64,000 bases of DNA from an uncultured Alphaproteobacteria bacterium (GCA_949297415.1 CASFSV010000014.1:7030-71029), one strand, 5' to 3'. Counted from the stretch's first letter, positions 45,061-64,000 are shown. Notes: generated by a model not told the origin, from the sequence alone. Numbers and translations: made by a program.

Positions 45061-46041
45061 TTAATTATGATATGATAAATGTCCGTTTTCCAGCTTTGCG
45101 TATCCGCCCAACGGAATCGTTAACAATGGTGCAGAGTGCCCAAAGTCTACATTGGCCAAAATCGGTAAGTCCTTTAATTCCGCTTTCGTATTTAAGATAA
45201 ATTCCAATCCTTCTCTGGTTACCTTAGAACCTTTTTGGAAACGACCAATCACGATACCTTTGACATTTACAAAATCATCTTGGTATATCAGGGCTTGTAA
45301 ATTGCGTTCAAAGTCAGCCAACGGGCTACTTTCCGTATCCTCTATAAACAATATGGTGTCTTTTTCAAATTTTGGACGGTACGATGTACCTAGCAGCAAA
45401 TTAAACGTACATAAATTTCCGCCGATAATCGTTCCTTCCGCCGTACCTTCGTGAATATTCCAATAGCCTTCATTGGCTTCAAACTCGCGTTTTTCTTGGT
45501 CTAAAAACCATAAATCATCACTCCAAATTTGGGATGGTTCAATATTATCCTTGCCATCTTCTACCAACATTTTGATAAAATGCTCAAACGTGTAGTCGCA
45601 GCCTTTTTTCATTCCTAATGAACTAAAATGCGGCCCATAATATGTTATCAATCCCGTTTTTGCCAATATTGCATTTTCTAATGCCGTAATATCAGAAAAT
45701 CCGCAAAATACTTTCGGATTTTGACGTATCAGCTCATAATCCAAATATTTCAGAAGTTGGTTTGAATTAGCTCCCCCGATAATGGTCATAATTCCTTTAA
45801 TGCTTTTATCTGCAAACGCCGTATGGATATCTGAAACTCTTTTCTCTATGGAACTTGACCCCATATAATCCCAATTTTCATCAATCGCATTTGGGGCATA
45901 CACAACTTCCAAGCCTAAACTTTCTAAGCGTTTTTTAGCGATTTCTCTTACATCTTGACCTATTATCTTCACACCTCTTGCCGGTGCAATAACCATTATT
46001 TTATCACCTTTTTGCAATCTGTTTGGTATAACCTTGTCCAT
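45061..46041 (-). CDS. LD-carboxypeptidase (peptidase S66, LdcA/MccF-like)
   Basis: KGDKIMVIAPA, nucleophile motif CGFSDITAL, C-terminal NVDFGHSAP. Confidence 0.85.
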   Translation of the reverse strand: MDKVIPNRLQKGDKIMVIAPARGVKIIGQDVREIAKKRLESLGLEVVYAPNAIDENWDYMGSSSIEKRVSDIHTAFADKSIKGIMTIIGGANSNQLLKYLDYELIRQNPKVFCGFSDITALENAILAKTGLITYYGPHFSSLGMKKGCDYTFEHFIKMLVEDGKDNIEPSQIWSDDLWFLDQEKREFEANEGYWNIHEGTAEGTIIGGNLCTFNLLLGTSYRPKFEKDTILFIEDTESSPLADFERNLQALIYQDDFVNVKGIVIGRFQKGSKVTREGLEFILNTKAELKDLPILANVDFGHSAPLLTIPLGGYAKLENGHLSYHN

Positions 46042-46055
46042 TTTTCTCCCTTTCT

Positions 46056-47774: not shown

Positions 47775-48495
47775 ATAAATCTCCGGCTATGATTCTTTCT
47801 TCTCCTTGTTTTGTTTTTAATATCAGATAACCATTGTCATCTATATCTTCAAATACTCCTGTTTTTGTTTCTCTTTCCGTTTTTACTGTAATTTCCTGAC
47901 GATAATTCTTGGCTATTTTTAACCATTGTTCGCGTATATTCTTAAATCCGTTTCGGCGATATTCTTCCATATCCTCGAAAAATTGCTTCAGATAATAATG
48001 CAATATTTCCGTTCGGTCAAGCTCTATACCGTTTTCTTTTAACGATGTTGCTTGGTAGTTTGTTCCTTCTAATATAGGAGCTCCAACAACATTTATACCT
48101 ATTCCTATACCCCAGATGTCTTTTTCTATATTTTCTATTAGTATTCCCGACATTTTTTTTCCTTCTAAAAATACATCATTGGGCCATTTTATTTGTACAT
48201 CACTTTGAGGAGATAGTTTTTTTATGACTTTTGCCAAACTCAATCCTACTATACTCACTATTTTACTCAGCTCTTGAGCCCCTGCTTCTTGCGTATATGT
48301 AAAATATAGGTTACCGATAATTTCTTGCCAATTCTTTCCGCGGCGACCTCGTCCTCCGGTTTGATGGAGAGCGCTGATAACTATAGTTCTTCCCAGTTCG
48401 CATACTTTTTCTTTAACTGTATCGTTGGTTGAGATAACACTTTCTGCTTCATACCAATCCCATTTTACAATTTTTTCTTTATAAACTAACGACAT
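47767..48495 (-). CDS. birA: biotin--[acetyl-CoA-carboxylase] ligase (no N-terminal HTH)
   Basis: HQTGGRGRRGKNW biotin-binding loop and C-terminal SH3-like segment. Confidence 0.88.
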   Translation of the reverse strand: MSLVYKEKIVKWDWYEAESVISTNDTVKEKVCELGRTIVISALHQTGGRGRRGKNWQEIIGNLYFTYTQEAGAQELSKIVSIVGLSLAKVIKKLSPQSDVQIKWPNDVFLEGKKMSGILIENIEKDIWGIGIGINVVGAPILEGTNYQATSLKENGIELDRTEILHYYLKQFFEDMEEYRRNGFKNIREQWLKIAKNYRQEITVKTERETKTGVFEDIDDNGYLILKTKQGEERIIAGDLFV

Positions 48496-49903
48496 AGAAC
48501 ATATCCTTCATTATGGCAAATAAATCTTGCGGATTAAACGCTACTAACACAATACAAATTACACTGAACAACGTATATGCCATTACCGATTTATTTTCAC
48601 TATCGTATATCTTTACTTTGTGCTCAAAATATGCGGTTTTAATTATATCCAGATACGACTTGGATAGTACCAGTAAGAAGAATAAAATAATACCTAAACT
48701 TATATAATACTCGTTCTTTAACAGCTCGGATACAACATTTAATTGCCCTAAAAATCCTACTAGCGGCGGCAATCCTATAAATGAAAATAAGCTGACTAAC
48801 AATGCTCCGGTTGTGTATGCTCTTGTTTCTGCTAATCCAGATAGAGATGTTACAGATGATAAATATTCTCCATGACTCTTTAAACTGTAAAAAACTAAAT
48901 AACTTCCATTTAAACTCAGCATATATACGAACAAATATACAAATGCTGCAAAGTTGGTTTCTAACTTAAAAAATGACAACAACATTAAAATAACACCGAA
49001 ATGATACATAGAGCTATATGACAATATGCGATGAAGGTTAATTCGTGCATTTGCACCCATTGCTCCGAAAATTACAGATAGTAAAGCAAATCCCTGATAA
49101 ACGCTTGAAAAATATTGTCCGTACGGGGCTACTAATTCTATATTCAGCTTTATGAAACATCCCCAAAAGGCTATTGGTGATATTAGCGCAAAGTAGTGAC
49201 TTACAGGCAAAATCCCTTTTCCGGTTTTATCTTCTGACATTATGTGAAAGGGGGCTATTCCTAAAGAATATAAAAACGGTATAATCACCGCAATGACGGA
49301 TACATATAGCCATATTGATTGATTTTGTTCTTTAATCAGTTCTTTGATGGTACTGAACTCCACATTGCCATCCGTATAGTTGTTTAAATATCCGAATCCA
49401 GCGGCAAAGATTATCAATACCATTGCCGATACCCCCATATACCGACTGGCCGCTTCTGATGGTAACTTTTCGTAACTTATGCTCAGTAGTCGATAATGGA
49501 TATAGGTTAGCAATATGTAACAGAATAGCAGTGCTACTAAATTTACGGACGATAATAATAAATTTATACCAATTAACGAACTCAATATTAAAACATAGTA
49601 TTTACATCCGGTGCGATTTTCTGTTCCAAACCATGTTGCAGACAGCCCTATCATTATATAGGCAAAGAACCCTATACATAAATCAAATAGTAATGTATAT
49701 GTATCATTGGCAAAATATAGAGGACTGAAGCTCTTGTCTTGCCATATTACATTCCAGAAAAGAGAAACCAATAGCCAAAACCGTGCTACTCTTGCATATA
49801 CTCTTGCTGCTTCATACGAAAGTATATATAAGAGAAATAAATGAAGTATTCCTATTATCAAAGAGGCTTCCGGTAGTGCATACCTTATATGTTCCAATAT
49901 CAT
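48479..49903 (-). CDS. nuoN: NuoN-like antiporter-type membrane subunit, highly divergent
   Basis: 14-TM class protein. SEAASRYMGVSAMV and GIAPFH echo NuoN motifs. nuoN-birA-rnj synteny is typical of Alphaproteobacteria. Canonical charged residues not found (see findings). Confidence 0.6.
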   Translation of the reverse strand: MILEHIRYALPEASLIIGILHLFLLYILSYEAARVYARVARFWLLVSLFWNVIWQDKSFSPLYFANDTYTLLFDLCIGFFAYIMIGLSATWFGTENRTGCKYYVLILSSLIGINLLLSSVNLVALLFCYILLTYIHYRLLSISYEKLPSEAASRYMGVSAMVLIIFAAGFGYLNNYTDGNVEFSTIKELIKEQNQSIWLYVSVIAVIIPFLYSLGIAPFHIMSEDKTGKGILPVSHYFALISPIAFWGCFIKLNIELVAPYGQYFSSVYQGFALLSVIFGAMGANARINLHRILSYSSMYHFGVILMLLSFFKLETNFAAFVYLFVYMLSLNGSYLVFYSLKSHGEYLSSVTSLSGLAETRAYTTGALLVSLFSFIGLPPLVGFLGQLNVVSELLKNEYYISLGIILFFLLVLSKSYLDIIKTAYFEHKVKIYDSENKSVMAYTLFSVICIVLVAFNPQDLFAIMKDMFYVVSL

Positions 49904-49912
49904 TTACTTCTC

Positions 49913-51340
49913 CTAAAAAACAAACCATAACGGTTTGAAAAATGATAAAAACAATACCAATAAACAACCTAAATATACCATAGAATGTAAATTTGATATA
50001 TCTGCACCTAAAACGCATGCTGAGGATGCGTTACTCTTATCTTTTAATTTGTATAACTCTTCCAATAGCGCTAACGCTACAATAAATACAGATAACATTA
50101 CCATTATTCCCAGAACTAAATTATAATTAAATATTTCGGATATAATGATAAAATTATTCCAAAACAATGAGGTTATCGGAAGCCCTATTCCTGCCAAGAT
50201 AAATAATGATAAATATTTTGAAGTTCTCGGCATATAACATAATATTCCTCCGGTACCATATATCCCCAATTCCTTTTTCTGGTATTCTATGTGGCTGATT
50301 AAAAATGATAGTACCGTAATTATCACAATATACGAAAATAAGGAATAGCCAATGTTTAATTTAAGTACATCCGTTGGTAAAAATACACTGGTTAAATATA
50401 GCAAGTAATAAACTGTCGTATATGCAAATAATTTATACCTTATATCTTTATGACTCAAACTGACTAAGGCTATAAATAACATCGTAATGATACATACTAT
50501 TTCAAAAATCGGAGCGTGAATTGCTATTGATTCCGGTACGGTATTGGGCCAAAAGCGAATAAAACCATATAATCCAATTAATGGAACTAAATTACCGACT
50601 AAGAATACTAAGGGATTTTTTAAACTTGAGTTGATTGATGATATCCAGTAATGAAATGGCCATATTGGTAATCGCGAAATAAAGGCAAAAAATATACTTA
50701 ACCATACAAAGTATTCTGTTCCACCCTTAAAATTCAGTTTTCCTGCTTCACTTAGCAAGATATTTCTTGATTGAGAATCGCACATCATTAAAATAGATAC
50801 CAGTAATAATAGCGCTCCGATTAAATTGTATAAGCTGAAACGTATCAATACTGTTTTTTTCCTTTGACTTCCGTATGTACTTATTAAAATCATCAGCGGC
50901 GTTCCAGATGCAACAAAAAATATATAAAATGACAGTACATCTGCGGCAATAAAATATCCGTTTAGCAAACTAATAAACAGCAGCTCCGAGGTAATTAACG
51001 TTTTTGAACGTTCCGTATTACGATTTAAACATAATTCACCGATGAGAAATGATAAATTTACACTTAAAATAATTAGTAACGAAAAAATATCAACCCCAAG
51101 GCATATCTCTACATAGGGATAATCTATCCATTTGAAATGTTCAAGTAGTTGTAATCCTTCTTTACTTAAATTACATTGTGCAAAAATATGGAGAATTAAA
51201 CCTATATTCGCTATAAGTGTCAGAATGGATACATTATAGACATTTGATGTTGTGTAATTTTTATCATTTCGTGCCGTTAATGTAAAAACGGAACCTATTA
51301 ACGGTATTAATATCAATCCTAAAAGCTGATATGAATTCAC
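49913..51340 (-). CDS. nuoM: NuoM-like antiporter-type membrane subunit, highly divergent
   Basis: LPIWPFHYW...LIGLYGFIRF parallels NuoM MP.WP.H.WLPDAHVEAP...LLK.GGYGF.RF, but the PDAHVEAP core is replaced. Confidence 0.6.
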   Translation of the reverse strand: MNSYQLLGLILIPLIGSVFTLTARNDKNYTTSNVYNVSILTLIANIGLILHIFAQCNLSKEGLQLLEHFKWIDYPYVEICLGVDIFSLLIILSVNLSFLIGELCLNRNTERSKTLITSELLFISLLNGYFIAADVLSFYIFFVASGTPLMILISTYGSQRKKTVLIRFSLYNLIGALLLLVSILMMCDSQSRNILLSEAGKLNFKGGTEYFVWLSIFFAFISRLPIWPFHYWISSINSSLKNPLVFLVGNLVPLIGLYGFIRFWPNTVPESIAIHAPIFEIVCIITMLFIALVSLSHKDIRYKLFAYTTVYYLLYLTSVFLPTDVLKLNIGYSLFSYIVIITVLSFLISHIEYQKKELGIYGTGGILCYMPRTSKYLSLFILAGIGLPITSLFWNNFIIISEIFNYNLVLGIMVMLSVFIVALALLEELYKLKDKSNASSACVLGADISNLHSMVYLGCLLVLFLSFFKPLWFVF

Positions 51341-53010
51341 GGCAATTCCCTCCTATAAAATGACAGAAGAAAACATATTATTCCGATAACTATAAAGGCG
51401 AAACATGCCATATAACTCTTACGATTAACTTTAAAAAATAAAGATATTCCCATTTTGTGCAGACCTGTCAAACCTGCCGTAATTATTTTTTCTGAAAAAA
51501 CAAAATCCACCATCAGCCATAATGTTCTGCTTAAATACATAAATGGTGTAACTAATGTGTAAAAAAAGAAACTTTTGCTTAAATCTTCTTTTTGAAACCA
51601 TTCTATTTCATATACGGCTCTTATTTTAGTTAGTAGCGGGCACCAACACAAAACTATAAAAAAGAGAATAAACAGAATATTATAAAGTGTATACGCTTGC
51701 ATTTCTATACTTGTATATACCAATAAACTTAGCATCACCAATAAAGATATCGGACGAAGAGGATTGGGAGTTAAATTTTCCAGTTTCCTTGTGTATGGAG
51801 ATTGGTATATATGATTAAGCACTATGCCTATGGCACAAATTAATATTGTTCCTGTTATAAGTATCCAAAATTGTTCTTGTTTTACAGAAATACGATATAT
51901 CAATGTTATAAATATATTGGCAATTAATATAAATTGAACTAATGTGGTTTTTAATATGAAGGAATTTGTTTCTCTTCCATTCAACATTTCACTTACTTTG
52001 GTTTCGTGATTTTGATATAAATACATTTTTAAAAATAGTAAATTGATGAAATAGCCTACACTGTAATAAAATGAATATTGCCAATTCCACTGTAAATCGC
52101 GATGTTCCAACATTAACAGTAAAAGTCCTATAAATCCCATATTCAGATATACCAATTTCTTTTTTAAATTATCTATTATAAGAAAGTTCAAAATACCAAA
52201 TATCATTGTTAACATGCTTATTATCTTTAACAATGGCAATGCTAAATCTGAAACTTCTACCAAGTTATGCAACTTTAGTAAGACAAGTATACCTGTTAAA
52301 GGTGCAAATAACAAATTTACAGTGCTCATACGCTGAAGTCTTGCGGCGCTTAAATCCAGCAAATAGCTCTGAAACATAAAAACTCCCATTTTAATAAATA
52401 CAGCAACCAAAAGCATCAACCCAACAAAATCTTTATGTCGACCTATTTTTTCATATTGTGGCAAATCTTCAAGTGACAGACTTTGCAGCTTTCCACATAC
52501 AAGCGCCAAAACCATAAACAAACATGTATCAGCAAAGAAATTGTATATTACATATCGATGTGACGAATCTACATCTTTTAGTATCAAATATCCGAGAATA
52601 TCTGTTATAAAGACTGCAGTTATCATCTGCACATAATTTTCAGAGCATATTAATAAGCTTGAGGAGGCAAAATTTAATAAAATAAAAGCATTAAAAGCAC
52701 TCTTTTTTTCTTCATATCGAAATATATTGTTATGAAGAATCGTCACAAGGGATAAGAAAAATAAAGGCAATAGTAAACGATGCTCTCCTAATTCCGGGCT
52801 AAAATCAATCGTTATATTTCCAATTTTAGATGTGCTCCATAGAAAAGAGAAACTTTCTTTATTGAGATTGACAGCATTTGTAGCAAATTCCATAAATAAA
52901 GCCGTTGCTGCAAAAAATATAAGCCAAGATATTAACCTATCATACTTCATTCTTTGTTTTATAAGGCCTATAAAGCTCAGAACAATTATAGAGGCTATTA
53001 TTTGTATCAT
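51337..53010 (-). CDS. nuoL: NuoL-like antiporter-type membrane subunit, shortened and divergent
   Basis: Polytopic, 557 aa, 4-nt overlap with the nuoM-like gene. Only faint Proton_antipo_M-like pattern (ITDILGYLIL..., FIKMGVFMFQ). Confidence 0.5.
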   Translation of the reverse strand: MIQIIASIIVLSFIGLIKQRMKYDRLISWLIFFAATALFMEFATNAVNLNKESFSFLWSTSKIGNITIDFSPELGEHRLLLPLFFLSLVTILHNNIFRYEEKKSAFNAFILLNFASSSLLICSENYVQMITAVFITDILGYLILKDVDSSHRYVIYNFFADTCLFMVLALVCGKLQSLSLEDLPQYEKIGRHKDFVGLMLLVAVFIKMGVFMFQSYLLDLSAARLQRMSTVNLLFAPLTGILVLLKLHNLVEVSDLALPLLKIISMLTMIFGILNFLIIDNLKKKLVYLNMGFIGLLLLMLEHRDLQWNWQYSFYYSVGYFINLLFLKMYLYQNHETKVSEMLNGRETNSFILKTTLVQFILIANIFITLIYRISVKQEQFWILITGTILICAIGIVLNHIYQSPYTRKLENLTPNPLRPISLLVMLSLLVYTSIEMQAYTLYNILFILFFIVLCWCPLLTKIRAVYEIEWFQKEDLSKSFFFYTLVTPFMYLSRTLWLMVDFVFSEKIITAGLTGLHKMGISLFFKVNRKSYMACFAFIVIGIICFLLSFYRRELP

Positions 53011-53072
53011 AAGAAACTATCCTTTCCTTTTGCCTCAGAATCTATAAACGGTATTAGTTTAAAGGATAGATA

Positions 53073-53390
53073 TTACTTAATCAAGGATTTTACATCTTTT
53101 ACTATACGAACAGGTACTTCATATTCTCTAGCCACATCTTCATTTTCAACTTCTACTATGAGCATTGAACTAACTGACTTTAACGGCATTCTTGCATCTT
53201 TTGCAATACTCTCAAATACGACAGCACTATCTTTTGTTCTGTATAAAAGAGCGGTTGTACCGCCATCATATACAAAGCGTGGATTTTCCGGTCCTCCGGC
53301 TCGAGAATTGATAATAATTAAGATATCCCCTGCTTCATTTTGTAATATATCATATCTGCTTTCTTGATCTATTTCTTTAATTGTGGACAT
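53073..53390 (-). CDS. hypothetical soluble protein (105 aa)
   Basis: ORF occupying the position where nuoK would normally precede nuoL. It is not hydrophobic, so it is not NuoK. Confidence 0.45.
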   Translation of the reverse strand: MSTIKEIDQESRYDILQNEAGDILIIINSRAGGPENPRFVYDGGTTALLYRTKDSAVVFESIAKDARMPLKSVSSMLIVEVENEDVAREYEVPVRIVKDVKSLIK

Positions 53391-53492
53391 TCTTCCCTCT
53401 TCTAATATCTTGTTATTTTGTTGTTTAATTTGTTTTTAGCACATAATAGTTAATAAATAAATAGCTAAATGAAAAAAAAATTAATTTTTTTA

Positions 53493-53521
53493 TTGACTAT
53501 CTAAAAATTATACTTTATATA
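53493..53521 (+). promoter_or_regulatory. sigma-70-like promoter of tRNA-Lys
   Basis: TTGACT, 17 nt, TATATA. The -10 element ends 19 nt before the mature tRNA 5' end. Confidence 0.6.
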
Positions 53522-53540
53522 CCTCTCTCAGTTACATTGT

Positions 53541-53616
53541 GGGCCCGTAGCTCAGTCGGTAGAGCATTTGACTTTTAATCAAAGGGTCATGGGTTCGAAT
53601 CCCGTCGGGCTCACCA
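53541..53616 (+). tRNA. tRNA-Lys (anticodon UUU)
   Basis: gggcccg/cgggctc acceptor (with one G-U) plus A plus CCA. Anticodon stem tttga/tcaaa with loop cTTTTaa. T-loop gggttcgaatccc. Hairpin aaggcttt..aaagcctt plus T-run follows. Confidence 0.93.
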
Positions 53617-53999
53617 GTAAAACAAAGGCTTTGAGAGAAATCTTAAAGCCTTTTACTTTTTGCTAGTAGTGAAATAGTAGTGGATACAAATAGCTTTTCA
53701 CGAATCTTTTCTCGTTCTTTTCTTCGATAACTTTATTTTGCTATTGAAGTTTACCCGAATCTTTTTTAGAAAAGGCTTTATGTGCATTTTTTTATCAAAT
53801 AAAGCCAGCCATACAGGACAACGATATAGGCGTTTTTTTTACAAATCGAAGAAAAATTAAACAAATATTTACGCAAGTCTCAGAGAGAGAATTCCATATC
53901 TCTTTAGCTTTCATTAAGAATCTTTAATCTCCACTTTTGATGAGTATTTTTAAATACTATATAATTATATACTGTGAGTATACTGAAAAATTGAAACAC

Positions 54000-54064: not shown

Positions 54065-56185
54065 ATGAGGCTCTTAAACAAGATAAACGATATATTCAAA
54101 AGAAATATTTTTGAAGACGGAGAAACTCTAGAAGTTGTTAGAGGTGCTAGTAGAGGCAATCTTCTTCCTATTAGTAATTTGATTGACACCCTTTCTGCAC
54201 TGAAAATATCAGGCACTCTTTATATAGGTTATCCAGTACTTTCCTCCGCAGACAATAATGAGGTTATTGATGCTTTGCTCATTTCTAAAAGTGTTGGATT
54301 ATTAGCTTTTAATTTTCCTAATACATCGCAATCACTTGATGAATTATGTGACGTTCAAGATAGAATAATATACACTTTTGAAGCTAACCTGAAAAAGCAT
54401 GAAGAACTGAGGAATGGAAGAAGCCTGATTATTACCCCTCAAATCGTAACATATGTTGAAGATATTAATAATTTTAATCCCCAAAATAAAGCTTATATTT
54501 TTGCTGATAGCAATTCTTTAGGTAAGACTCTAAAAAAAATAAAAAATGAATTGAGTGACGATCAGTTAAAACGAATCAATTCAGCCATCCAAAAAGTTTC
54601 ATCGCTTAAACCTAAAAACACACGAAAAAATGCTATCACAGATGGCTCTAAGGGCTTTATATTAAAACAAATAGAAAAGGAAATTGCTAATTTAGATAAA
54701 TGGCAAAAACAGGCTTCTATCGAAGTTCCAGATGGTCCCCAAAGAATCAGAGGATTAGCGGGGTCTGGAAAAACTGTAGTTCTTGCATTAAAAGCGGCAT
54801 ATTTACATACTAATTACCCAGAATGGAAAATTGCTGTAACATTTTATACGCGTTCTTTAAAACAACAATTTCAAGAACTAATTGAAAAATTTACTTATGC
54901 TCATTCAGAAAGCAAACCAGATTGGGATAAAATAGAAATTCTACACGCATGGGGATCTTTATCTGAAAAAGGAATATATTCCGAGGCATCTCAGAAAGCA
55001 GGTATCAAACCTCTGAATTTTCAAACAGCAAAAGAAATTAGCCCTAATGACCCCTTTCGCTTTGTTTGTGAGCAACTAAATAATGAAATTAAAGACAAAA
55101 ATATTGAAATGTACGATGCCATTCTAGTTGATGAAGCTCAGGATTTTCCCGATACATTTTTTAAAATACTATATAAAATGGCTAAAGGAGATAAAAAAAT
55201 TGTATGGGCATATGATGAACTTCAAAATTTATCTGGCTCAACAATGCCATCTATTAATAATTTATTTGATGGGAATATTACAGTAGACAACTTCAAAAAT
55301 GAAGTCGGACGGCCTAGAAAAGATATTGTTCTCCCTATATGTTATAGAAATACACCATGGGCAATAACTGTCGCACATGCTTTAGGATTTGGAATTTATC
55401 GTAATGGTGGTTTAGTCCAGTTCTTTGAACAATTTGACCTGTGGAAAGATGTTGGTTATGATGTTGATAAACCAATGGACTTTGGGGTAGATGTATCCTT
55501 AGTTCGAAGCAAAGGTTCTTATCCAGAATACTTTGATAAATATATTACAAAAACAGATGCTGTACAGGTAAATACGTTCGAAACTGTATCTGAACAATAT
55601 ACTAAGCTTGCTCAATCAATCAAAGAAAATATTGAGAAAGATGAATTAACTCCTCAAGATATCATGATCATTCTCCCCGATGCCTATACGGCACAGAAAG
55701 AGTATGTGAGATTATCAAAGATTTTAAGTGAGTATAATATTCCTGCACATCTTGCTGGAGTATCAACAAATAGAGATACTTTTCATATAGATGATTCTGT
55801 TACTGTAACAAGTATCTACCGAGCAAAAGGAAATGAAGCGGCAATGGTATATCTTGTTAATTCTGAATATTGCTATATTGGTTTCAACCTCCCGAGTCTA
55901 AGAAATACATTGTTTACAGCAATAACTCGCTCTAGAGCATGGGTTAGAATATTTGGTGTTGGTTTTAAGATGAAACTACTTGAAGAGGAAATTAATAAAG
56001 TTATAGATAACGATTTCAAATTAATTTTCACCATTCCATCAAAAGAAGTTTTAAGAAATCTTCGAAAAATTAATAGAGATTTATCTGAAGATGACAATTT
56101 TGTTAAAGAAGCGAGTAAACTCATACAAAATGGTGCAACTGAGGATGATTTACATCAAGTTATTCGTGAGTTGTTTGAAAACTGA
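54065..56185 (+). CDS. SF1 (UvrD/AAA_19-like) helicase with degenerate NERD-like N-terminal domain; helicase component of a helicase+DUF2290-type defence pair
   Basis: GLAGSGKTVVLALKAAY (Walker A), ILVDEAQDF (motif II), VWAYDELQNL, ICYRNT, SIYRAKGNEAAMVYLV, TAITRSRAW. N-terminal roughly 200 aa has IDALLISKSVGLLAFNF where NERD nucleases carry D...ExK. Confidence 0.8.
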   Translation: MRLLNKINDIFKRNIFEDGETLEVVRGASRGNLLPISNLIDTLSALKISGTLYIGYPVLSSADNNEVIDALLISKSVGLLAFNFPNTSQSLDELCDVQDRIIYTFEANLKKHEELRNGRSLIITPQIVTYVEDINNFNPQNKAYIFADSNSLGKTLKKIKNELSDDQLKRINSAIQKVSSLKPKNTRKNAITDGSKGFILKQIEKEIANLDKWQKQASIEVPDGPQRIRGLAGSGKTVVLALKAAYLHTNYPEWKIAVTFYTRSLKQQFQELIEKFTYAHSESKPDWDKIEILHAWGSLSEKGIYSEASQKAGIKPLNFQTAKEISPNDPFRFVCEQLNNEIKDKNIEMYDAILVDEAQDFPDTFFKILYKMAKGDKKIVWAYDELQNLSGSTMPSINNLFDGNITVDNFKNEVGRPRKDIVLPICYRNTPWAITVAHALGFGIYRNGGLVQFFEQFDLWKDVGYDVDKPMDFGVDVSLVRSKGSYPEYFDKYITKTDAVQVNTFETVSEQYTKLAQSIKENIEKDELTPQDIMIILPDAYTAQKEYVRLSKILSEYNIPAHLAGVSTNRDTFHIDDSVTVTSIYRAKGNEAAMVYLVNSEYCYIGFNLPSLRNTLFTAITRSRAWVRIFGVGFKMKLLEEEINKVIDNDFKLIFTIPSKEVLRNLRKINRDLSEDDNFVKEASKLIQNGATEDDLHQVIRELFEN

Positions 56186-56865
56186 TGTCACTTGATAAAG
56201 AAATATTGGAAGATATTAACGATACTTGCGTGAAACTTGTTGAGAATGACCTTGCGTATTCTTTTCAAGGGGTTTGTTGTGAAAAACTTTCTGGGGGGAT
56301 AAGACGAATATGTTGGTCTAATCATATATCAGGAACACTTAATACTTCTTCTTATTTTAATAATTTAGAGCAATATAAAAATATATTAAGAAATAATGCT
56401 TATTTCTGCATGCTATACGATGGTTCTATTATCCGCGCATCATACTCTATCGAGAGAAATAAACTAATTGCGCAGAATTTACTTTATTGGCCAGCCCCTT
56501 TTAATCTTAATCTACAAAATATTAATTTTGAATTTGGTGGTCCTTTAGAAATTTTAGAAGACATTATGTCATCTGAAGATTGGCATCAGCGTATGATTAT
56601 GAGATCTCCGATAAGAATTGATTTTGACCAAAAAAATTGTTCAGATGAACATCCTTTAATTCACTTGCACATACAGGATAAAGATTGCAGAATCGCTGTT
56701 AACAAACCTCTTTGCTTTAATTCTTTTGTACGTTTTATTTTTGAAAATCATTATAATCAGATATATAAAAAAGAAAAATTATTTAGACATCTTTCACATA
56801 AAAACTTAAATTTTGATATGGGTAAGATGGAGCATTCTTTATCTTTATTATTTAAATATAAATAG
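56185..56865 (+). CDS. DUF2290-like protein, translationally coupled partner of the helicase
   Basis: ATG overlaps the helicase stop (TGATG at 56183-56187). 226 aa, soluble. IRIDFDQKNCSDEHPLIHLHIQ segment. Size and pairing fit the helicase+DUF2290 family as I recall it. Not confirmed by HMM. Confidence 0.55.
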   Translation: MSLDKEILEDINDTCVKLVENDLAYSFQGVCCEKLSGGIRRICWSNHISGTLNTSSYFNNLEQYKNILRNNAYFCMLYDGSIIRASYSIERNKLIAQNLLYWPAPFNLNLQNINFEFGGPLEILEDIMSSEDWHQRMIMRSPIRIDFDQKNCSDEHPLIHLHIQDKDCRIAVNKPLCFNSFVRFIFENHYNQIYKKEKLFRHLSHKNLNFDMGKMEHSLSLLFKYK

Positions 56866-56879: not shown

Positions 56880-56980
56880 TTCTTACTAGCATATCCGCTT
56901 ACAAAAAATGCTTTATACTTGCATTTAAATCAAATTTCTATATTCAATAAATATTATGGCCATGCATGGAGACAAAAGAA

Positions 56981-58657
56981 ATGAGTGTATCTTTTAAGGT
57001 TAGAAAATATAAGTGTTTCGGTGACGAATATCAGGGTTTTGATATCATTAAAAAATTTAATATAGTTATAGGAAAAAATAATAGCGGAAAATCAAAATTA
57101 TTGGAAGCATTAGAATATTTTATCAAAAAAGGAATTCAATCCTCATATATTCCAGATATTCAAATTGGAAGTGTCCTTACAGAAGAACCTTTAATTAATA
57201 TTTTTAAAAATCGCACTTATGGAGGTGTTTTAGGAGAAGCACTTGGTAACAGTTCCTATAGCCACTGGGATTTAGTTGGAAAGTATTTAGTTGGTCATTT
57301 CTATACATTATCATTATATGGTGATAATAAAAAAATAGATACTGATTTAAGCTATTTTAAAGCACATTTAGAGGCTGAACCTATTATATCATCAATGTTA
57401 CAAAGAATACAAGTTACCAACCCTTTTGAAGGATATCGCTATTTGCATTTACAAGCAGAACGAGATATAAAAAAAGAAAAAATTAATTTTGATAAAAAAT
57501 TATCTTTTGACTTTATAGATAAAGATGCCAGCCATATTACAGACTTAATTGCGCGTATGCTTAATGATGAAAACGGTAATCAAAATCACTGGCAAGAATA
57601 TATCGAAAATAATTTTTTGGATTTAATTAATCAAATTGTAGCTCCGGAAATAAAGTTCTCTCGTATTTATACTAAAACTAATTCTGTTGGCACATATGAA
57701 ATATATCTTGAAGAAAAGGAAAAAGGAGGAATTAAGCTTTCTGACTGTGGTAGTGGTCTTAAAACTGTTATTGCAACCCTGACACTTTTACATATTATTC
57801 CTTTTTTAACCCAAGAAAAAAAGTTTGTATATGCGTTGGAAGAACTAGAAAACAATATGCATCCCAGCTTAGAACGAAAACTTTTATTTCATATAAAAGA
57901 TTATATAATGGCAAACAAAGATATGCTATTATTCTTAACAACTCACTCTAATGTTGCAATAGATTTATTTGGTAATGATAAAAATTCACAAATACTTCGC
58001 GTGACAAATGATGGACACTATTCCACTGTTCAAAAAGTAGATACTTGGAATGATAAGAAAAATTTACTAGATGAACTAGGGATAAAAGCAAGCGATATTT
58101 TACAATCCAATTGTATCATATGGGTAGAAGGCCCCTCAGACAGAATATATATTAACAAATGGATACAGCTTTTTAATACTGGCTCTCCTTTACAAGAAGG
58201 ATTAGATTATCAATGTGTCTTTTACGGAGGTGCATTGCTGGCGCATTATTCAGCCGATGATAATGGCTTCATCAATCTTCTTAAAGTTAATAAAAATTCT
58301 TATGTTGTTATGGATAGTGATAAAAGGTCAAGTGACGGAACTCTAAAACAAAGAGTTCAACAAATTGCAGAAGCTATGCCTGATAATCATTGGATAACCT
58401 CTGGCAAAGAAATAGAAAACTATTTGCCTAAGGCTGCTCTTTCCGCATATTTCGGAGAAGAAACAGAGATTGACCAATACGCTTTATTTCCCGACATATA
58501 CAAAGAAAGAAAAGGTGTTGATACATTTGACAAAGTTTCCTTTGCTTCAGAAATTATTCAAAAGGACGAATATAACATAAGTAACCTTGAGAAATGCTTA
58601 GATTTAAAAGAGCAGATGAAAAAATTAATAGATTTTATCAGAGCTGCAAATTTATAA
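56981..58657 (+). CDS. OLD-family-like ABC ATPase fused to a Toprim/DUF4435-like nuclease domain (P2 Old / GajA / fused PARIS class)
   Basis: ATG 56981 with ggaga RBS. GKNNSGKSKLLEAL (Walker A), LSDCGSGLK (signature), FVYALEELENNMHP (Walker B/D-loop), LLFLTTHS (H-loop). C-terminal IIWVEGPSDRIYI (Toprim Glu) and VVMDSDK (DxD). Confidence 0.8.
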   Translation: MSVSFKVRKYKCFGDEYQGFDIIKKFNIVIGKNNSGKSKLLEALEYFIKKGIQSSYIPDIQIGSVLTEEPLINIFKNRTYGGVLGEALGNSSYSHWDLVGKYLVGHFYTLSLYGDNKKIDTDLSYFKAHLEAEPIISSMLQRIQVTNPFEGYRYLHLQAERDIKKEKINFDKKLSFDFIDKDASHITDLIARMLNDENGNQNHWQEYIENNFLDLINQIVAPEIKFSRIYTKTNSVGTYEIYLEEKEKGGIKLSDCGSGLKTVIATLTLLHIIPFLTQEKKFVYALEELENNMHPSLERKLLFHIKDYIMANKDMLLFLTTHSNVAIDLFGNDKNSQILRVTNDGHYSTVQKVDTWNDKKNLLDELGIKASDILQSNCIIWVEGPSDRIYINKWIQLFNTGSPLQEGLDYQCVFYGGALLAHYSADDNGFINLLKVNKNSYVVMDSDKRSSDGTLKQRVQQIAEAMPDNHWITSGKEIENYLPKAALSAYFGEETEIDQYALFPDIYKERKGVDTFDKVSFASEIIQKDEYNISNLEKCLDLKEQMKKLIDFIRAANL

Positions 58658-58664
58658 TTCTGCT

Positions 58665-61600
58665 TTAGTTATGTGCATATATCTCGTCAAGCTTTTGTTC
58701 TAGATTTCCGGCTTGAACTGCCGGCAACGTATCAAATTGTCTTAAATTATGCTTTTCTATCTTAATTTCGTCACTGAAGCCTAAGATATAGGCGATGGCT
58801 ATGCGATATATAATTTCTGTCGGAGCCAAACCATAAACCTGATTGGCAAAAATATGTTGCAACCGTTCTTTATCATTAGGGAATGCTTGTTTCATCTTCT
58901 CGTTTCTATATAATCTTTTAACAATTTCGGTAATATAAAGACCGGATTTCATATACAAGTCGATAAAGGTTTTATTAGGATCATCAAAGCATTCCGGATT
59001 TTCTGCCAACAAGCTATCGACCATTTCTACAACTACTTTCTTGGGGGTGTATATTTGGTTGGTCTTTTGAGGCGGAATGTAATCGAAAATGTCTTCTTTG
59101 CTTGCTTCATCAAAGTAATTTCCTAATTTTCGTTTCAGATTAAGAAACTCTTTAACCGAATCATTAAAGACTATTGGATCAAATAAATGTCCGTCAAAAT
59201 GCTTTGTTTCTCCAGTTTCAGCATCAACAAACTCTCCACCATCTCTTAAAAATCTAAATTCATCCAGAGTAATGCTGGTTACTTCTTTAAATACCTCATC
59301 AGGGATAATTTTATCAAAATTTTCCAAACACGTTTCTTCATTTCCATAAGCCATTAAAAATGATGGAATTGTTCTTGAAAAACCTCTTAAGTGGTCTCTG
59401 ATAGAGTTTTCTATTTCATTCTTTTGTTTTTGCTTTTTATCTGTTTCTACAACTTTAACAATCGTTTCGCCGGCTTCTTTAACAACGTCTTCCACAACAG
59501 ACTGCATTTTTTCAACAAATTCTTGTGTGTTTTGTTGTTTTTGTTGGTCAAATTTTTGATTTATGGCTTCTATCATTTCCGGCTTGTTATATTTTTGCGC
59601 TTGCTCTAATTCTTTTTGTCTTTCAAGTTCTGTCTTTTTTTGCTCAATTTGATAATCCCCAAAAGATTTCACAACGGTAATATCAGAACTGGCATTAAGT
59701 TTCCTTTCTAGCGCAGTCATTGTTGACTTTGATAAATCTGTTCCGTAATTATCTTTGGCTACTTTAACTAATTCTGAGGTTACAGCTGTATGGAATTCAT
59801 TTTTCATCCGTTCCAAAAGTTCGTCTTTATCATCCTTATGTGTTTCTTGAATTTGTTTGATTGTATCTTGCAGATTTTGGGTAATACCATAAATTTTTTC
59901 ACCAAAAACATTATCCACGCCAATTTCTATGGCTTGTTGCGGTAATTCTACTTCTCCTTCATCATTGATTGATAAATCTTCTTTTGTTTGTGGTGTAACG
60001 GGTATAGGCTCTTTTACTGCCTCAAATTGTTTAATAATATCTACAACTTCCTGCGGGGCACTAAAAATATTGCTAATATTTTGAAATAAGAAATTACTCA
60101 TAAAACCACGTCTTACAACTTCCAAAGCGTGAATTTTTCGTGGAATGGACAATACTTTTTCAGCATCGAGGGCAATCATTTCGCCTTCATCATCTTCACC
60201 GTAAACAGGAAAGAAGTTCAGAAGTTCGCGAATGTGTTTCTTGCGAGTATCACTATCTCCACCACCGCGAGATGTATCGGCGCTTAAATCGTTGGCAAAT
60301 TGCTCAAAAATATCCAATGTTCGAGCTGGATCGAAGTCAAATACATAAGCATTCTCTTTTCGGTATAATTCGTTTCCAACTTTGAATAAACACGGATTTT
60401 GGGCTCTAAAGGCCGCTTGCATATAAAGTGCGGGACTTTTGACATTGCTGAGCATAAAAACAGCTGTCCATTCCGGAACTGTAATACCGGTTGTAAGTTG
60501 CCCAACCGAAAGAGTTATTGTTTTATCATGCTCTTTAATTGCTTTTCTTACCTTATCCAGAGCTTTTTTATTTTCGCTGTCATCATCAATTTTGCCATTG
60601 CCTGCGGCTAAAACAATTTCATAATCCTTGAAAACATCGTGTTTTTGGAGTTTTTTAGCCAAAGCCTTTGCACTATCAACTCGATTAAGCAGCCAAAATG
60701 TATGTTTTAACTCGTTTTGCAATTCCGGAGTTGAAAAAGGAAACTTCTCTTGACTGACCAAGGCATCTAAAAATTTATCTACATCAGCTTCATATTTAAA
60801 ACTTCCATTGGCATTAGTAATAAAAAATTCGTTCAAATCAAAAGCATATTCTTCTGTTTCGCCATCATTATCAAAATCTGCTCCTTTTTGAAGCTTATCT
60901 CGGATAATTTCAGACATCTGATAGGTATAAAGATTAAGCTGTGGCAAATTTTCGTAAGGGTTTTCTTCGTCTTGAGAACAATCCCATTCTCGTTTTGCTT
61001 TTTGTTCATCAGCGTAGGTCCAGTTGAAAATAGCTTTTTCTTCAAACTTATTATTGGCCAAAGCCTTAAATGGAGTTCCGGACAGATGCAAAGTATATTT
61101 TCTTTTGATATGGTCAAAAGCAATATCGGTTTTGTAGGTATCAACACCTTCATGAGCTTCATCTATTATCAAAATATCCCATTCTAATTCAGCTACTTCT
61201 TTGAGTTTGTCATATTGGCCGCCAAAATAAATAGAACCTTTCATATCTTGCAGTGACACAAACTCTATACAGCCTTTATGATCTGGCTGGCTGATATGTT
61301 TGGTATATTGCTCTCGCGATAGGACATAAGGTTTTCCGATTAAACCATCTACTTGACTGACAAAGTAATATCCTGATTCCGTTCCCAAAAACTTGACATA
61401 ATCTTCGTACCAAGAATTAGCAATGGCTGGTCGGTTGGTTACAATTAACACTTTGGGAACGTTAAGGCTTTTGCATAACGCATAGGCTGACAATGTTTTA
61501 CCAAAACGAGGTTTGGCGTTCCATAAAAATTCTGGCTCATCATCTTGGCGAGATTTAAAATATAAAGAAGTTTGTTCTATAGCCTCATTTTGCTCTTTGC

Positions 61601-61985
61601 GAAGCTTATAAGGAATAACGCCTAATGTTTCTAATATTCCTCTATGTTGTTTAAAATAGCAAAATTCATCATAAGAATCTTGTGGTAAAATATGGAACCA
61701 TTCGGAATCCGGTAGTTTTTTAACATCTTTCTTTTGTAAATAGGCATGAAAATCTTTATCTTTAAAAGAATCTCCGCTTCCATCTTGATAAATAGCCAAA
61801 TCTTGCCATTCCAGCTTAAATTTGATATCTGCTGTTTGGGTTTGTTGTTTGATACGAGCTTCTACATTGTCTTGTTCTGTATAGCCAATCTTTGTCCAAC
61901 CATTATGGCGAGCAATTTCCGGAGTTGTGTAAGCATAGCATTTGGGCTCAATTTTTTTAGCTGTTTTGATGTTAGGAGATTTCAT
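58665..61985 (-). CDS. T5orf172/GIY-YIG-like domain + SF2 (ResIII/SNF2-like) helicase + coiled-coil + degenerate methyltransferase-like C-terminal lobe
   Basis: N-terminus CYAYTT...GWTKIGYTEQ...SEWF (T5orf172-type). NAKPRFGKTLSAYAL (motif I), LIIDEAHEG (DEAH), LHLSGTPF (motif III), GQLTTGITVPEW...MQAAFRAQN (motifs V/VI). C-terminus IYTPKKVVVEMVDSL...FIDLYMKSGLY...VYGLAPTE. Confidence 0.8.
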   Translation of the reverse strand: MKSPNIKTAKKIEPKCYAYTTPEIARHNGWTKIGYTEQDNVEARIKQQTQTADIKFKLEWQDLAIYQDGSGDSFKDKDFHAYLQKKDVKKLPDSEWFHILPQDSYDEFCYFKQHRGILETLGVIPYKLRKEQNEAIEQTSLYFKSRQDDEPEFLWNAKPRFGKTLSAYALCKSLNVPKVLIVTNRPAIANSWYEDYVKFLGTESGYYFVSQVDGLIGKPYVLSREQYTKHISQPDHKGCIEFVSLQDMKGSIYFGGQYDKLKEVAELEWDILIIDEAHEGVDTYKTDIAFDHIKRKYTLHLSGTPFKALANNKFEEKAIFNWTYADEQKAKREWDCSQDEENPYENLPQLNLYTYQMSEIIRDKLQKGADFDNDGETEEYAFDLNEFFITNANGSFKYEADVDKFLDALVSQEKFPFSTPELQNELKHTFWLLNRVDSAKALAKKLQKHDVFKDYEIVLAAGNGKIDDDSENKKALDKVRKAIKEHDKTITLSVGQLTTGITVPEWTAVFMLSNVKSPALYMQAAFRAQNPCLFKVGNELYRKENAYVFDFDPARTLDIFEQFANDLSADTSRGGGDSDTRKKHIRELLNFFPVYGEDDEGEMIALDAEKVLSIPRKIHALEVVRRGFMSNFLFQNISNIFSAPQEVVDIIKQFEAVKEPIPVTPQTKEDLSINDEGEVELPQQAIEIGVDNVFGEKIYGITQNLQDTIKQIQETHKDDKDELLERMKNEFHTAVTSELVKVAKDNYGTDLSKSTMTALERKLNASSDITVVKSFGDYQIEQKKTELERQKELEQAQKYNKPEMIEAINQKFDQQKQQNTQEFVEKMQSVVEDVVKEAGETIVKVVETDKKQKQKNEIENSIRDHLRGFSRTIPSFLMAYGNEETCLENFDKIIPDEVFKEVTSITLDEFRFLRDGGEFVDAETGETKHFDGHLFDPIVFNDSVKEFLNLKRKLGNYFDEASKEDIFDYIPPQKTNQIYTPKKVVVEMVDSLLAENPECFDDPNKTFIDLYMKSGLYITEIVKRLYRNEKMKQAFPNDKERLQHIFANQVYGLAPTEIIYRIAIAYILGFSDEIKIEKHNLRQFDTLPAVQAGNLEQKLDEIYAHN

Positions 61986-61991
61986 AGCTTC

Positions 61992-64000
61992 TTACTCCAT
62001 AGGCTTTACGTTTGTTTCAATAAACTGTATTTCATCTTCAGATAATCCATATTTTTTATACAGTAGTGCATCTATTTCCGGAATAGACTTACTCCAGTCG
62101 ATATCTGAATTTTCTGTAAAATCTTGGAGAGGAACATATGCCCAAGTTGACACAGGATTGTGTTGTGTTTTTTTCAAAATACCAAGTAATACACGTGCTA
62201 ATTTTGTTTTAATATATTTTAAGAGATTTTCTGCTTCTGTTTGATTATTAAAATTACCAATACTTATAAATGTAGGTGTAGCTGACATAAGAGGTGTACC
62301 AATAAGAGGTGTACTCAAAACTTCACCTATAGCACCACATCCGTTAGATTCTGGAACAAATACTTTATAGTTATCAATATTATTACAATTTGGATACCTA
62401 GCAGACATATATTTTTGTTTAACAAATCTATATACCCTTTTTCCATTATATAAGCCCAATATTTTATAACATTCTTCATTGTCTGGTTTATTTTCATATA
62501 TTCCATAATTAGCCAAAACATCTAATGTTGATGATTTTAGTTCGTATTCTTCATTTGGACTTAATTCTTTTACATTTGGATGTTTTTTTTGAACAGACTG
62601 TAACCTTTTGCTAATGGTTTCAGGATAATCTTTCAAATATTCATCATTAAACTTTAAATCAGATCGCCCTCCAAACATAATAGATGGCAGATTATGTTCA
62701 GAGGATTTTACAAATTTAGCAGAAATACTACGGAGAGTATTATCTGGTATAAATTCACCTATAGCACCATAATCTTTTTGATTATCCCTATATATAATAG
62801 CAATCCCTCCTTTTATATCTGTTGTTGGAAATATTTTAGAAGAATCTGCTTCAAAACGTTCTACTTTTATATGGGAATCTTGTAACATTTTTAGATTCCA
62901 CTCTTTTGAAGTTAATCCATTATTGAATAAAAATCTAGCTGGAGATATTAAAATAGACTTATCTGCAATCATTTCGGCTACATCATAGAATAATGGGTAT
63001 ATAGGTTCTTGTCTATTATATGTTTCATTTGATGCTTGATAAGGAGGGTTACCAATAACATAATCAAACTTCATTTTTTTATATCCTTTCAGATCGCGGA
63101 AATAAAAGACAAGCTTATTTCTCCAGTCTTTCACGCGGCAAATAATGGGAAAACTAAGGGTGGGTAAATCGTTAAACAGCTCTAATTGTGAGGCTTCAGA
63201 TGCAACGAACGGTGTACATTCTTTCAAACCGTCCATTTGCCAAATATTCCAAGCAATAACATTAGCTATCTGTTTGAGGTGTGCTATTGCCGGAAATTGT
63301 TGAAATTTATATTTGTAGTTATCAATAAAGGTCCAAAGCATATTTTCTCTGGCTAAAAGAAGATTATCGCCTTGATATTCATATCCATAGGTGCTTTCAT
63401 AAGCTCTTTTAGCCCAAACAAACCAATCGGCTTCATTATCCGTGTTTTCATTAACAATACGTAATTTTCTATCTAACAAGCCAATACGTTTTATAATCGG
63501 CAAAACTTCTCCGGTTGTTGTGTCATATCTTGAAACCAAAAATGGCGCTTCGCCACAAGTGATTTCCAAGCGTTTGGAGTCAACATATCTTTGCCATTCG
63601 GCTTTTTTGCGTTTGTTCGTTTCTTTAAAAGAAATCTTATGTAAGGTTGGCACCCAAGTTTTATCGATCACTTGGTTAAAAACGTTTGGTTCTCCAAACC
63701 ATTCTTCATCACACAGATTATTCATTTCTGCGCAAATCCAACTTGGTGTAAAAACTTCTGCCGATTTGCGGGTTCGGTTAAGCTGATCTTCTTTGCTTTT
63801 GGCTATACGTGGTTGAATTATTTTTGTATTTGAGCCAGTTATTAATTCCGGAAAAATTTCTTTTTCTGCCGTATAAGCCTCGCCGTATTTAGCATATTCA
63901 TCACAAGCCCAGCGAATATAGCGACCGGTTGTTTTGTCTTGTAATAAGATTTTTAATAAATATGGGCTTAACTCCCGAATATTTTGCTCTAAAATGTCAA
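61992..64000 (-). CDS. N6-adenine DNA methyltransferase (Eco57I/TaqI-like gamma class), N-terminus beyond the window
   Basis: FDYVIGNPPYQ (motif IV), LEITCGEAPFL (motif I variant). My own translation upstream of the track start stays open to position 64000 (...RKSAEVFTPSWICAEMNNL...). Stop is 6 nt before the helicase gene start. Confidence 0.8.
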   Translation of the reverse strand, partial: DILEQNIRELSPYLLKILLQDKTTGRYIRWACDEYAKYGEAYTAEKEIFPELITGSNTKIIQPRIAKSKEDQLNRTRKSAEVFTPSWICAEMNNLCDEEWFGEPNVFNQVIDKTWVPTLHKISFKETNKRKKAEWQRYVDSKRLEITCGEAPFLVSRYDTTTGEVLPIIKRIGLLDRKLRIVNENTDNEADWFVWAKRAYESTYGYEYQGDNLLLARENMLWTFIDNYKYKFQQFPAIAHLKQIANVIAWNIWQMDGLKECTPFVASEASQLELFNDLPTLSFPIICRVKDWRNKLVFYFRDLKGYKKMKFDYVIGNPPYQASNETYNRQEPIYPLFYDVAEMIADKSILISPARFLFNNGLTSKEWNLKMLQDSHIKVERFEADSSKIFPTTDIKGGIAIIYRDNQKDYGAIGEFIPDNTLRSISAKFVKSSEHNLPSIMFGGRSDLKFNDEYLKDYPETISKRLQSVQKKHPNVKELSPNEEYELKSSTLDVLANYGIYENKPDNEECYKILGLYNGKRVYRFVKQKYMSARYPNCNNIDNYKVFVPESNGCGAIGEVLSTPLIGTPLMSATPTFISIGNFNNQTEAENLLKYIKTKLARVLLGILKKTQHNPVSTWAYVPLQDFTENSDIDWSKSIPEIDALLYKKYGLSEDEIQFIETNVKPME

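Follow-up and report, generated by a model that had tools for sequence, protein, structure and literature searches.

Uncharacterised relatives of MmeI and of Type ISP enzymes that bring together a DNA methyltransferase (MTase), a helicase and a GIY-YIG nuclease have been predicted to form restriction-modification (R-M) systems (PMC2731913, PMC3553950). Morgan et al. (2009) pointed to MmeI homologues that have a helicase and a GIY-YIG protein as flanking neighbours, and also to 'large single polypeptides' with nuclease, helicase, MTase and target recognition domain (TRD), which by their account had attracted little attention (PMC2731913); enzymes of a related kind with GIY-YIG nucleases are mentioned in the 2012 paper on Type ISP (PMC3553950). 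Among such systems, the only one found to have been studied in the literature is the DnmA(YeeA)-YeeB-YeeC cluster; a cluster of this type was predicted to be R-M-like with modification of a single strand (PMC2731913), and, according to the part of PMC9973331 that cites the observation, one affects phage sensitivity in Vibrio crassostreae. The locus considered here lies at the end of a 64,000-nucleotide (nt) stretch of DNA from an uncultured alphaproteobacterium (GCA_949297415.1, CASFSV010000014.1:7030-71029), hereafter the window, and consists of two minus-strand genes, one for a Mod-like N6-adenine MTase and the other for a Res-like protein of 1106 amino acids (aa). It is fairly probable that these genes constitute a two-gene, GIY-YIG-armed split relative of Type ISP R-M systems, which would be ATP-dependent and which is built from three modules: A and B, the two halves of the MTase, and H-Hc, the Res-like protein. 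An earlier note on this DNA had likewise proposed an R-M-like, helicase-driven module in which a GIY-YIG domain takes the place of the PD-(D/E)xK nuclease, and this proposal is supported because the synteny of MTase and helicase is conserved, the candidate catalytic residues are kept, module B is swapped, and the PADLOC Type IIG model matches both proteins.

The two genes and their parts are the following, in window coordinates.

61992-64000, minus strand: Mod-like N6-adenine MTase gene in the fused A-B form; full length 727 aa, the C-terminal 668 aa in the window
63081-64000, minus strand: module A (in-window part), the N-half of the MTase, aa 1-365, with motifs X, I, II and III
63738-63761, minus strand: motif X of module A, AEVFTPSW
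63537-63569, minus strand: motif I of module A, LEITCGEAPFL
Minus strand, in module A: motif II, YGYEY, and motif III, NIWQMDGL
61992-63080, minus strand: module B, the catalytic C-half, TRD and conserved C-terminal tail; starts MKFDYVIGNPPYQ
63039-63050, minus strand: NPPY of module B
58665-61985, minus strand: Res-like gene H-Hc, 1106 aa, with GIY-YIG domain, superfamily 2 (SF2) motor, helical region and half-MTase
61671-61946, minus strand: T5orf172/MUG113 domain (GIY-YIG clan), aa 14-105, from Pfam MUG113
60066-61610, minus strand: SF2 helicase-like ATPase core, aa 126-~640, from Pfam ResIII
61152-61163, minus strand: DEAH of the SF2 core, whose Walker A is AKPRFGKT
59376-59939, minus strand: long helical (coiled-coil-like) region, aa 683-870, ~190 aa, from the AlphaFold2 (AF2) model
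58668-59408, minus strand: Hc, aa 860-1106, a conserved helical lead-in and a degenerate MTase N-half, with motif X IYTPKKVV, I-like FIDLYMKSGLY, II-like VYGLAPT (no acidic residue) and III-like NLRQFD

The gene pair is arranged as the earlier note described it, with the MTase ending at 61992, 6 nt (61986-61991) before the 1106-aa open reading frame (ORF), and GGAG stands ahead of the ATG of the helicase gene. The start that had been given for the MTase has to be moved, however, since the frame is open to the window edge at base 64000, and the protein is 727 rather than 577 aa long. The shorter length came from an ORF lister, and motif X lies upstream of the start that it chose; the start codon is ~175 nt beyond the window, and the full-length sequence was taken from contigs L001 and L002, which encode both window proteins identically.

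The assignment of the first gene to the N6-adenine MTases, made in the note from NPPY and the motif I variant LEITCGEAPFL, stands, both motifs having been found in place and Pfam giving an Eco57I match (E 3.7e-14). The motifs follow the order X-I-II-III-IV (NPPY) and so on with the TRD last, which is the order of the gamma class with a C-terminal TRD. Conservation was assessed in a comparison set of 115 related loci from genome collections and contigs. Module A, which in the window matches the PADLOC MTase_II model PDLC03390 (E 2e-104), has across these loci motif X, a motif I of the form E-I/P-x-x-G-E/D-A/G, a motif II with an acidic residue, and motif III, the canonical motif I being present in 88 of 93 sequences. 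Module B starts across the loci with MKFDxxIGNPPYQ and continues through motifs IV-VIII to the TRD and a conserved tail; NPPY is invariant or nearly so in the alignments, and the module also matches PADLOC PDLC03375. In the AF2 model of the fused A-B protein (predicted local distance difference test, pLDDT, 83; predicted template modelling score, pTM, 0.78), a complete beta1-7 MTase fold is followed by the TRD, and its best PDB matches in Foldseek are BrxX/PglX, BpuSI, LlaGI (5ffj), DrdV and MmeI. A phmmer search of the PDB sequences gave no meaningful match for either window protein or for the fused protein of locus L031, and NCBIfam holds a model for neither the MTase nor the 1106-aa protein.

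The Res-like protein begins with the T5orf172/GIY-YIG-like domain and continues with the SF2 DEAH helicase, as the note had also said. Pfam MUG113 reaches 28.3 bits, above the cut-off of 22.3, and T5orf172, which falls just below its cut-off here, is above it (23-26 bits) in the relatives P0251 and P0298; the Pfam scan of the 1106-aa protein found no nuclease family besides these two. The candidate catalytic residues are Y17/Y19, K32-I-G34, R44, H80 and E95, of which Y17, K32-x-G34, R44 and E95 hardly vary, if at all, when relatives of 37-52% identity are aligned. The Y17/R44/E95 pattern matches, by eye, what we take to be the Tyr/Arg/Glu set of I-TevI. On these sequence features, the domain is placed in the GIY-YIG superfamily, and nuclease activity is predicted for it.

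The ATPase core gives a ResIII match (E 6.8e-14) and weaker Helicase_C and SNF2 matches in Pfam, and in alignments of the motor protein its Walker A and DEAH motifs show almost no variation or none. In Foldseek, the 1106-aa model matches the Type ISP enzyme LlaBIII (4xqk) best, and SNF2-family remodelers, ZorD and EcoR124I HsdR (Type I) come next, so that the core appears to be of the double-stranded DNA (dsDNA) translocase kind, and translocation is predicted. The coiled coil of about 250 aa that the note had inserted behind the motor is real as a long helical stretch but shorter, at ~190 aa; the AF2 helices span residues 683-715, 720-747, 753-798 and 803-870. This region is the most variable part of the protein, with an identity of 36-63% as against 64-81% for the motor.

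The C-terminal part of the 1106-aa protein, Hc, was absent from the earlier description. AF2 predicts for it a helix followed by beta1-alphaA-beta2-alphaB-beta3. An alignment of profiles by hhalign, with 104 sequences for Hc and 93 for A, gave a probability of 90% and an E of 1.5e-6 over 160 columns, with four motifs in register; in an earlier hhalign run with shallow alignments only motif X aligned (probability 10%), and a direct BLASTP comparison of Hc with A gave no match. A profile of H-Hc-B from 19 fused proteins is colinear with the MTase of DrdV along the stretch that takes in motif X, motif I and NPPY (E 0.0025), and the PADLOC model PDLC03626 runs contiguously over Hc and B in the fused protein of L031, at profile positions 869-1359. 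Because these three comparisons agree, Hc is identified as a paralogous N-half of the MTase fold, homologous to A. It is a degenerate one. Its motif I is D-[LP]-[YF]-x-K-S-G in 101 of the 104 sequences, with a Lys at the position of the first Gly of the S-adenosylmethionine (SAM) loop, and its motif II is G-x-A-P-[TS], without an acidic residue, whereas module A retains the canonical residues. From what is generally known of Rossmann-fold MTases, SAM would be bound by A and probably not by Hc.

A search with Hc only, in 1.84 billion representative proteins, returned 844 clusters; in their proteins of ~1100 aa Hc forms the C-terminus, and in those of 1360-1530 aa it is internal. Such a universal extra half-MTase domain has not been seen described in the literature. 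One relative of 1381 aa (P0251) lacks B behind H-Hc and has in its place an unrelated domain of ~270 aa; this domain has a D...D-F-K stretch that could be a PD-(D/E)xK motif, and Pfam finds nothing there. In a related alphaproteobacterial metagenome-assembled genome (MAG), positions 9737-10486 of locus L035 hold only the last 161 codons of the helicase gene, that is, the end of Hc, at 99% protein identity and joined to unrelated upstream sequence; this fragment is the remnant of a deleted or replaced system.

Throughout the 115 loci the system always comprises the three modules A, B and H-Hc, which recur in every fusion state and order, with adjoining module genes often overlapping by a few bases. 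The arrangements are the following, genes being separated by a comma and fused modules by a hyphen.

A-B, H-Hc: the window and many others
A, B, H-Hc: L005, L007, L026 and many others
A, H-Hc-B: L031, L037, L040 and plasmid pRS5
H-Hc-B, A: L047, L060, L067
A, H-Hc, B: L054
H-Hc-A-B as a single chain: P0298, P0339, P0374

Both A (208-361 aa) and B are thus separate genes in many loci. In essentially all loci with enough flanking sequence, the MTase lies directly upstream of the helicase gene with a gap or overlap of a few nt, and wherever the flank is long enough an A gene is found. Seven loci with upstream flank in which A was at first missed have an upstream gene of 208-293 aa with canonical motif I, and five of the seven also have motif X (FTP); because these seemingly A-less loci carry an upstream A, module A is never lost, even beside an H-Hc-B protein that looks complete. 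Directly 3′ of the helicase gene, a conserved ORF of 111-116 aa stands in L005 (13304-13654) and L007 (13307-13642); it is not found in the window.

The coexistence of two homologous N-halves allows a bolder reading, in which B would be completed either by A, giving a SAM-competent enzyme that methylates, or by Hc, giving a predicted SAM-incompetent one that reads the target and gives the motor and nuclease licence to act. Modification and restriction would share one TRD and exclude each other, which refines the split Type ISP-like reading and does not oppose it. Besides the homology of Hc and A, the natural occurrence of both A-B and Hc-B fusions, the colinearity of Hc plus B with a complete MTase domain, and the retention of A where H-Hc-B seems a complete enzyme are in keeping with this exchange of halves, as is a motif I in Hc that is conserved and yet non-canonical (Lys for the first Gly), in a domain without the motif II acid, when A has both. 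In the window, however, A and B share a polypeptide for which AF2 by itself predicts a complete domain; to pair with B, Hc would need to push aside a half that is covalently attached to it. In addition, the single chains H-Hc-A-B hold both halves in cis; an Hc that serves as a docking or regulatory adaptor fits equally well. The exchange is therefore rather unlikely. If it does take place, the split fold forces restriction and modification to use one recognition module while they are kept mutually exclusive.

The R-M-like reading as such also draws on the behaviour of module B. In comparison with L003, L004 and L019, the window helicase is 96-98% identical and module A 97%, whereas module B is just 24-34% identical. 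DNA identity to the sister loci, at 95-97%, stops directly after the NPPYQ codons, at window position 63036, and returns near or past the end of the gene. This pattern is the signature of specificity swapping in R-M systems and identifies B as a putative swappable specificity cassette. Together with a motor-protein identity of 56-75% across distant phyla, the exchange of B gives the family the look of R-M systems under diversifying selection and horizontal transfer. In L015 (8973-11139, Anaerococcus sp.), module B is duplicated in tandem together with ~100 nt of the 5′ end of the helicase gene, the copies being identical over the first 223 aa and differing only in the last ~120 aa. The idea that this pair provides alternative specificities was rejected, as it is a near-identical tandem duplication that includes the helicase 5′ fragment.

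The family is large. Each window protein used as a query found more than 7,000 database proteins at E <= 0.001, so both ORFs are far beyond chance, and a collection with one genome per species yielded at least 594 confirmed matching stretches. The synteny spans Alphaproteobacteria, Clostridia, Bacilli, Bacteroidota, Actinomycetota, Saccharibacteria, Planctomycetota and one archaeal MAG. The archaeal copy is L083, from a Methanocorpusculum sp. MAG of goat caecum, and L050, L062, L073, L086 and L095 are from Saccharibacteria of the candidate phyla radiation (CPR); if the binning of these archaeal and CPR genomes is correct, transfer has been very wide. Current annotation of the family is confined to 'DEAD/DEAH box helicase', 'Eco57I methylase domain protein', 'N-6 DNA methylase' and 'hypothetical protein'.

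Taken with these observations, the split Type ISP-like reading leads to the following model. The A-B protein would recognise an asymmetric DNA target through its C-terminal TRD and methylate an adenine with SAM, by which the host DNA would be protected. The Res-like protein would join the Mod-like A-B protein, probably through Hc, the paralogue of A. At an unmethylated target, the DEAH motor, which is similar to those of SNF2 and Type I proteins, would hydrolyse ATP and translocate on dsDNA. The N-terminal GIY-YIG domain would then cut, most likely at a distance from the site once stalling or collision has occurred, in the manner of Type ISP and Type I enzymes, and phage defence would be the expected outcome.

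Several points weigh against this model. In the 1106-aa protein itself T5orf172 scores 17.6 in Pfam against a cut-off of 20, and the AF2 model of that protein is of moderate quality (pLDDT 70, pTM 0.46). The docking of Hc to the Mod-like protein is a proposed, assigned role. The search of the literature found no characterisation of this architecture and no tested member of the family, and the studied cluster DnmA-YeeB-YeeC of Bacillus subtilis provides neither restriction nor phage defence (PMC9973331). Some copies on conjugative plasmids adjoin a JAB/RadC-like gene. Such a setting can also hold anti-restriction genes.

The B. subtilis result bears above all on the possibility that the window genes are a decayed or domesticated relic, with an orphan or regulatory methylase and a helicase-nuclease that no longer restricts, as proposed for DnmA-YeeB-YeeC. 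Decay does occur in the family, as genes are frameshifted or split in L011, L022, L030, L042, L049 and L088 and one locus, L035, keeps only a 3′ remnant. The window ORFs, on the other hand, are intact and 6 nt apart, with GGAG before the second start, and all conserved motif residues are kept; moreover, the family is held at 56-75% identity across phyla, and its B cassettes are actively exchanged. Because this maintenance across phyla and the exchange of B speak for ongoing selection on specificity, a relic is an improbable explanation of the window copy.

The plasmid-borne copies raise the question of whether the methylase-helicase pair instead shields incoming DNA, as a mobile-element establishment or anti-restriction function like that of the polyvalent proteins of conjugative elements. 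The system is carried by 85 plasmids, including those of Enterococcus and of dairy lactic acid bacteria, and 23 of these are conjugative; the copies in E. faecium lie near a JAB/RadC-like gene and FtsK/SpoIIIE, and an unannotated 'Bacteriophage sp.' contig has a copy of 64% identity. Most copies are nevertheless chromosomal, and of the 85 plasmids 40 cannot be mobilized; pRS5, a Pediococcus plasmid of 10 kb, encodes the system as A (306 aa) and H-Hc-B (1417 aa) and has a toxin-antitoxin pair. In the window, the island at tRNA-Lys that holds the system has other defence genes but none for transfer, and a conserved nuclease domain combined with diversifying TRD cassettes suits restriction better than protection. 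An anti-restriction role is thus very unlikely, and the ATP-dependent R-M reading is retained.

The surroundings of the gene pair in the window comprise the following features.

53541-53616: tRNA-Lys (TTT anticodon), at the island boundary
54065-56865, plus strand: UvrD-like helicase of 706 aa (PADLOC 'Helicase' PDLC03002, E 7e-215) and DUF2290 protein of 226 aa (Pfam DUF2290, E 2e-40)
56966-58657, plus strand: OLD-family ATPase of 563 aa (AAA_15/AAA_21), with weak AriA, GajA and AbiLi matches

Synteny with L003 (83% identity, 45092-53682) ends at 53682, just past tRNA-Lys, and from there a variable island of lower G+C reaches beyond the end of the window; the window copy is an intact member of the family in a tRNA-linked defence island. 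The stop of the 706-aa helicase gene overlaps the start of the gene for the 226-aa DUF2290 protein, and the two resemble the Helicase-DUF2290 anti-phage pair known from P2/P4 hotspots. The ATPase, which has the OLD-like C-terminal motif IIWVEGPSDRIYI, is encoded convergently with the helicase-nuclease gene, and 7 nt separate the two stops. L019 and L036 have this ATPase, and it is absent downstream of the system in L003, L004 and all distant loci. Because L003 and L004 have the system, with a helicase 97% identical, without ATPase or Helicase-DUF2290, and L019 has the ATPase without Helicase-DUF2290, the ATPase is regarded as independent cargo with no obvious partner gene.

This distribution also bears on a resemblance to Hma, a system of helicase, methylase and ATPase, which the earlier note had seen when the convergent ATPase gene (563 aa) is counted in. 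The three activities do stand next to one another at 56966-64000. The PADLOC Hma models match none of the five neighbouring proteins scanned. In Hma, the HmaA helicase, HmaB 5-methylcytosine (m5C) MTase and HmaC ATPase form one three-gene operon (PMC8565338), whereas here the MTase is of the N6-adenine type and the ATPase gene is convergent, separable, of the OLD/AriA/GajA-like kind, and absent in L003, L004 and all distant loci; only the labels helicase, methylase and ATPase are held in common. The Hma reading is accordingly refuted, and there is next to no likelihood left to it. BREX and DISARM were not among the PADLOC matches listed for the same five proteins.

Outside the window, ~120 nt upstream of the MTase start, contig L002 (54-689), of the same lineage as the window, encodes a serine recombinase of 211 aa with Resolvase and helix-turn-helix (HTH) domains. 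A serine recombinase lies within 1.5 kb of the system in 11 of 76 loci, in either orientation, which suggests a small mobile cassette in one subclade. A role as the driver of an invertible promoter or as a component of the system was rejected in view of this frequency and of the inverted repeats at the intergenic region, which are short and unconvincing.

The family appears to be a large, widespread and unstudied class of ATP-dependent R-M-type systems. Its characterisation would add a GIY-YIG-armed, multi-subunit counterpart to the Type ISP enzymes, would explain orphan-looking N6-methyladenine motifs in many methylomes, and would test how the duplicated and degenerate half-MTase serves to link the motor-nuclease with the methylase. 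The B cassette may also offer a natural route to the re-targeting of specificity.

The family can finally be set beside the known systems. It is closest to Type ISP. The fused relatives H-Hc-B and H-Hc-A-B have the Type ISP order of nuclease, SF2 ATPase, linker, gamma N6-adenine MTase and TRD; in structure, LlaBIII ranks first for the 1106-aa model, and LlaGI is one of the leading matches for that of the MTase. The SF2 motor and the gamma MTase with C-terminal TRD are thus shared, while the single chain and the Mrr-type PD-(D/E)xK nuclease are not: the nuclease is a T5orf172/GIY-YIG domain, and the window system is encoded by two genes rather than as one polypeptide, although single-chain relatives exist in the family. 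The extra N-half, which brings the count to 1.5 MTase domains, and the ~190-aa helical insert are further differences.

The MTase with its TRD belongs to the same structural family as those of the Type IIG/IIL enzymes (MmeI, DrdV, BpuSI, Eco57I) and of BREX PglX/BrxX, and Hc plus B can be aligned to the MTase of DrdV. In PADLOC the fused relatives carry the label 'Type IIG', and the PADLOC Type IIG REase-MTase model PDLC03626 is matched by two proteins in the window, at 335-634 in the helicase protein and at 1006-1359 in the MTase; the N-terminal third of the model is never matched. Unlike the window system, the Type IIG/IIL and PglX/BrxX enzymes have PD-(D/E)xK nucleases and no ATPase motor.

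The DnmA-YeeB-YeeC cluster similarly has MTase, helicase and T5orf172/GIY-YIG activities in one conserved cluster, but its nuclease and helicase are separate and its MTase is MmeI-like with an N-terminal domain of its own. The window system, with its fused nuclease-helicase, Eco57I-family MTase and half-MTase on the helicase, is set apart from it by this architecture.

The likeness to Type III that the earlier note had drawn holds for gene order, with Mod upstream of Res and Res consisting of an SF2 ATPase and a nuclease, but not for kinship. Type III Mod is a beta-class enzyme with an internal TRD, and its Res has a C-terminal PD-(D/E)xK nuclease. Neither is found here; instead, the MTase is of the gamma class with a C-terminal TRD, its closest relatives being Type ISP and Type IIL/IIG, and the Res-like protein has an N-terminal GIY-YIG domain and a C-terminal half-MTase. 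The family falls outside Type ISP, Type III and Hma and is most suitably classed as a variant of ATP-dependent R-M.

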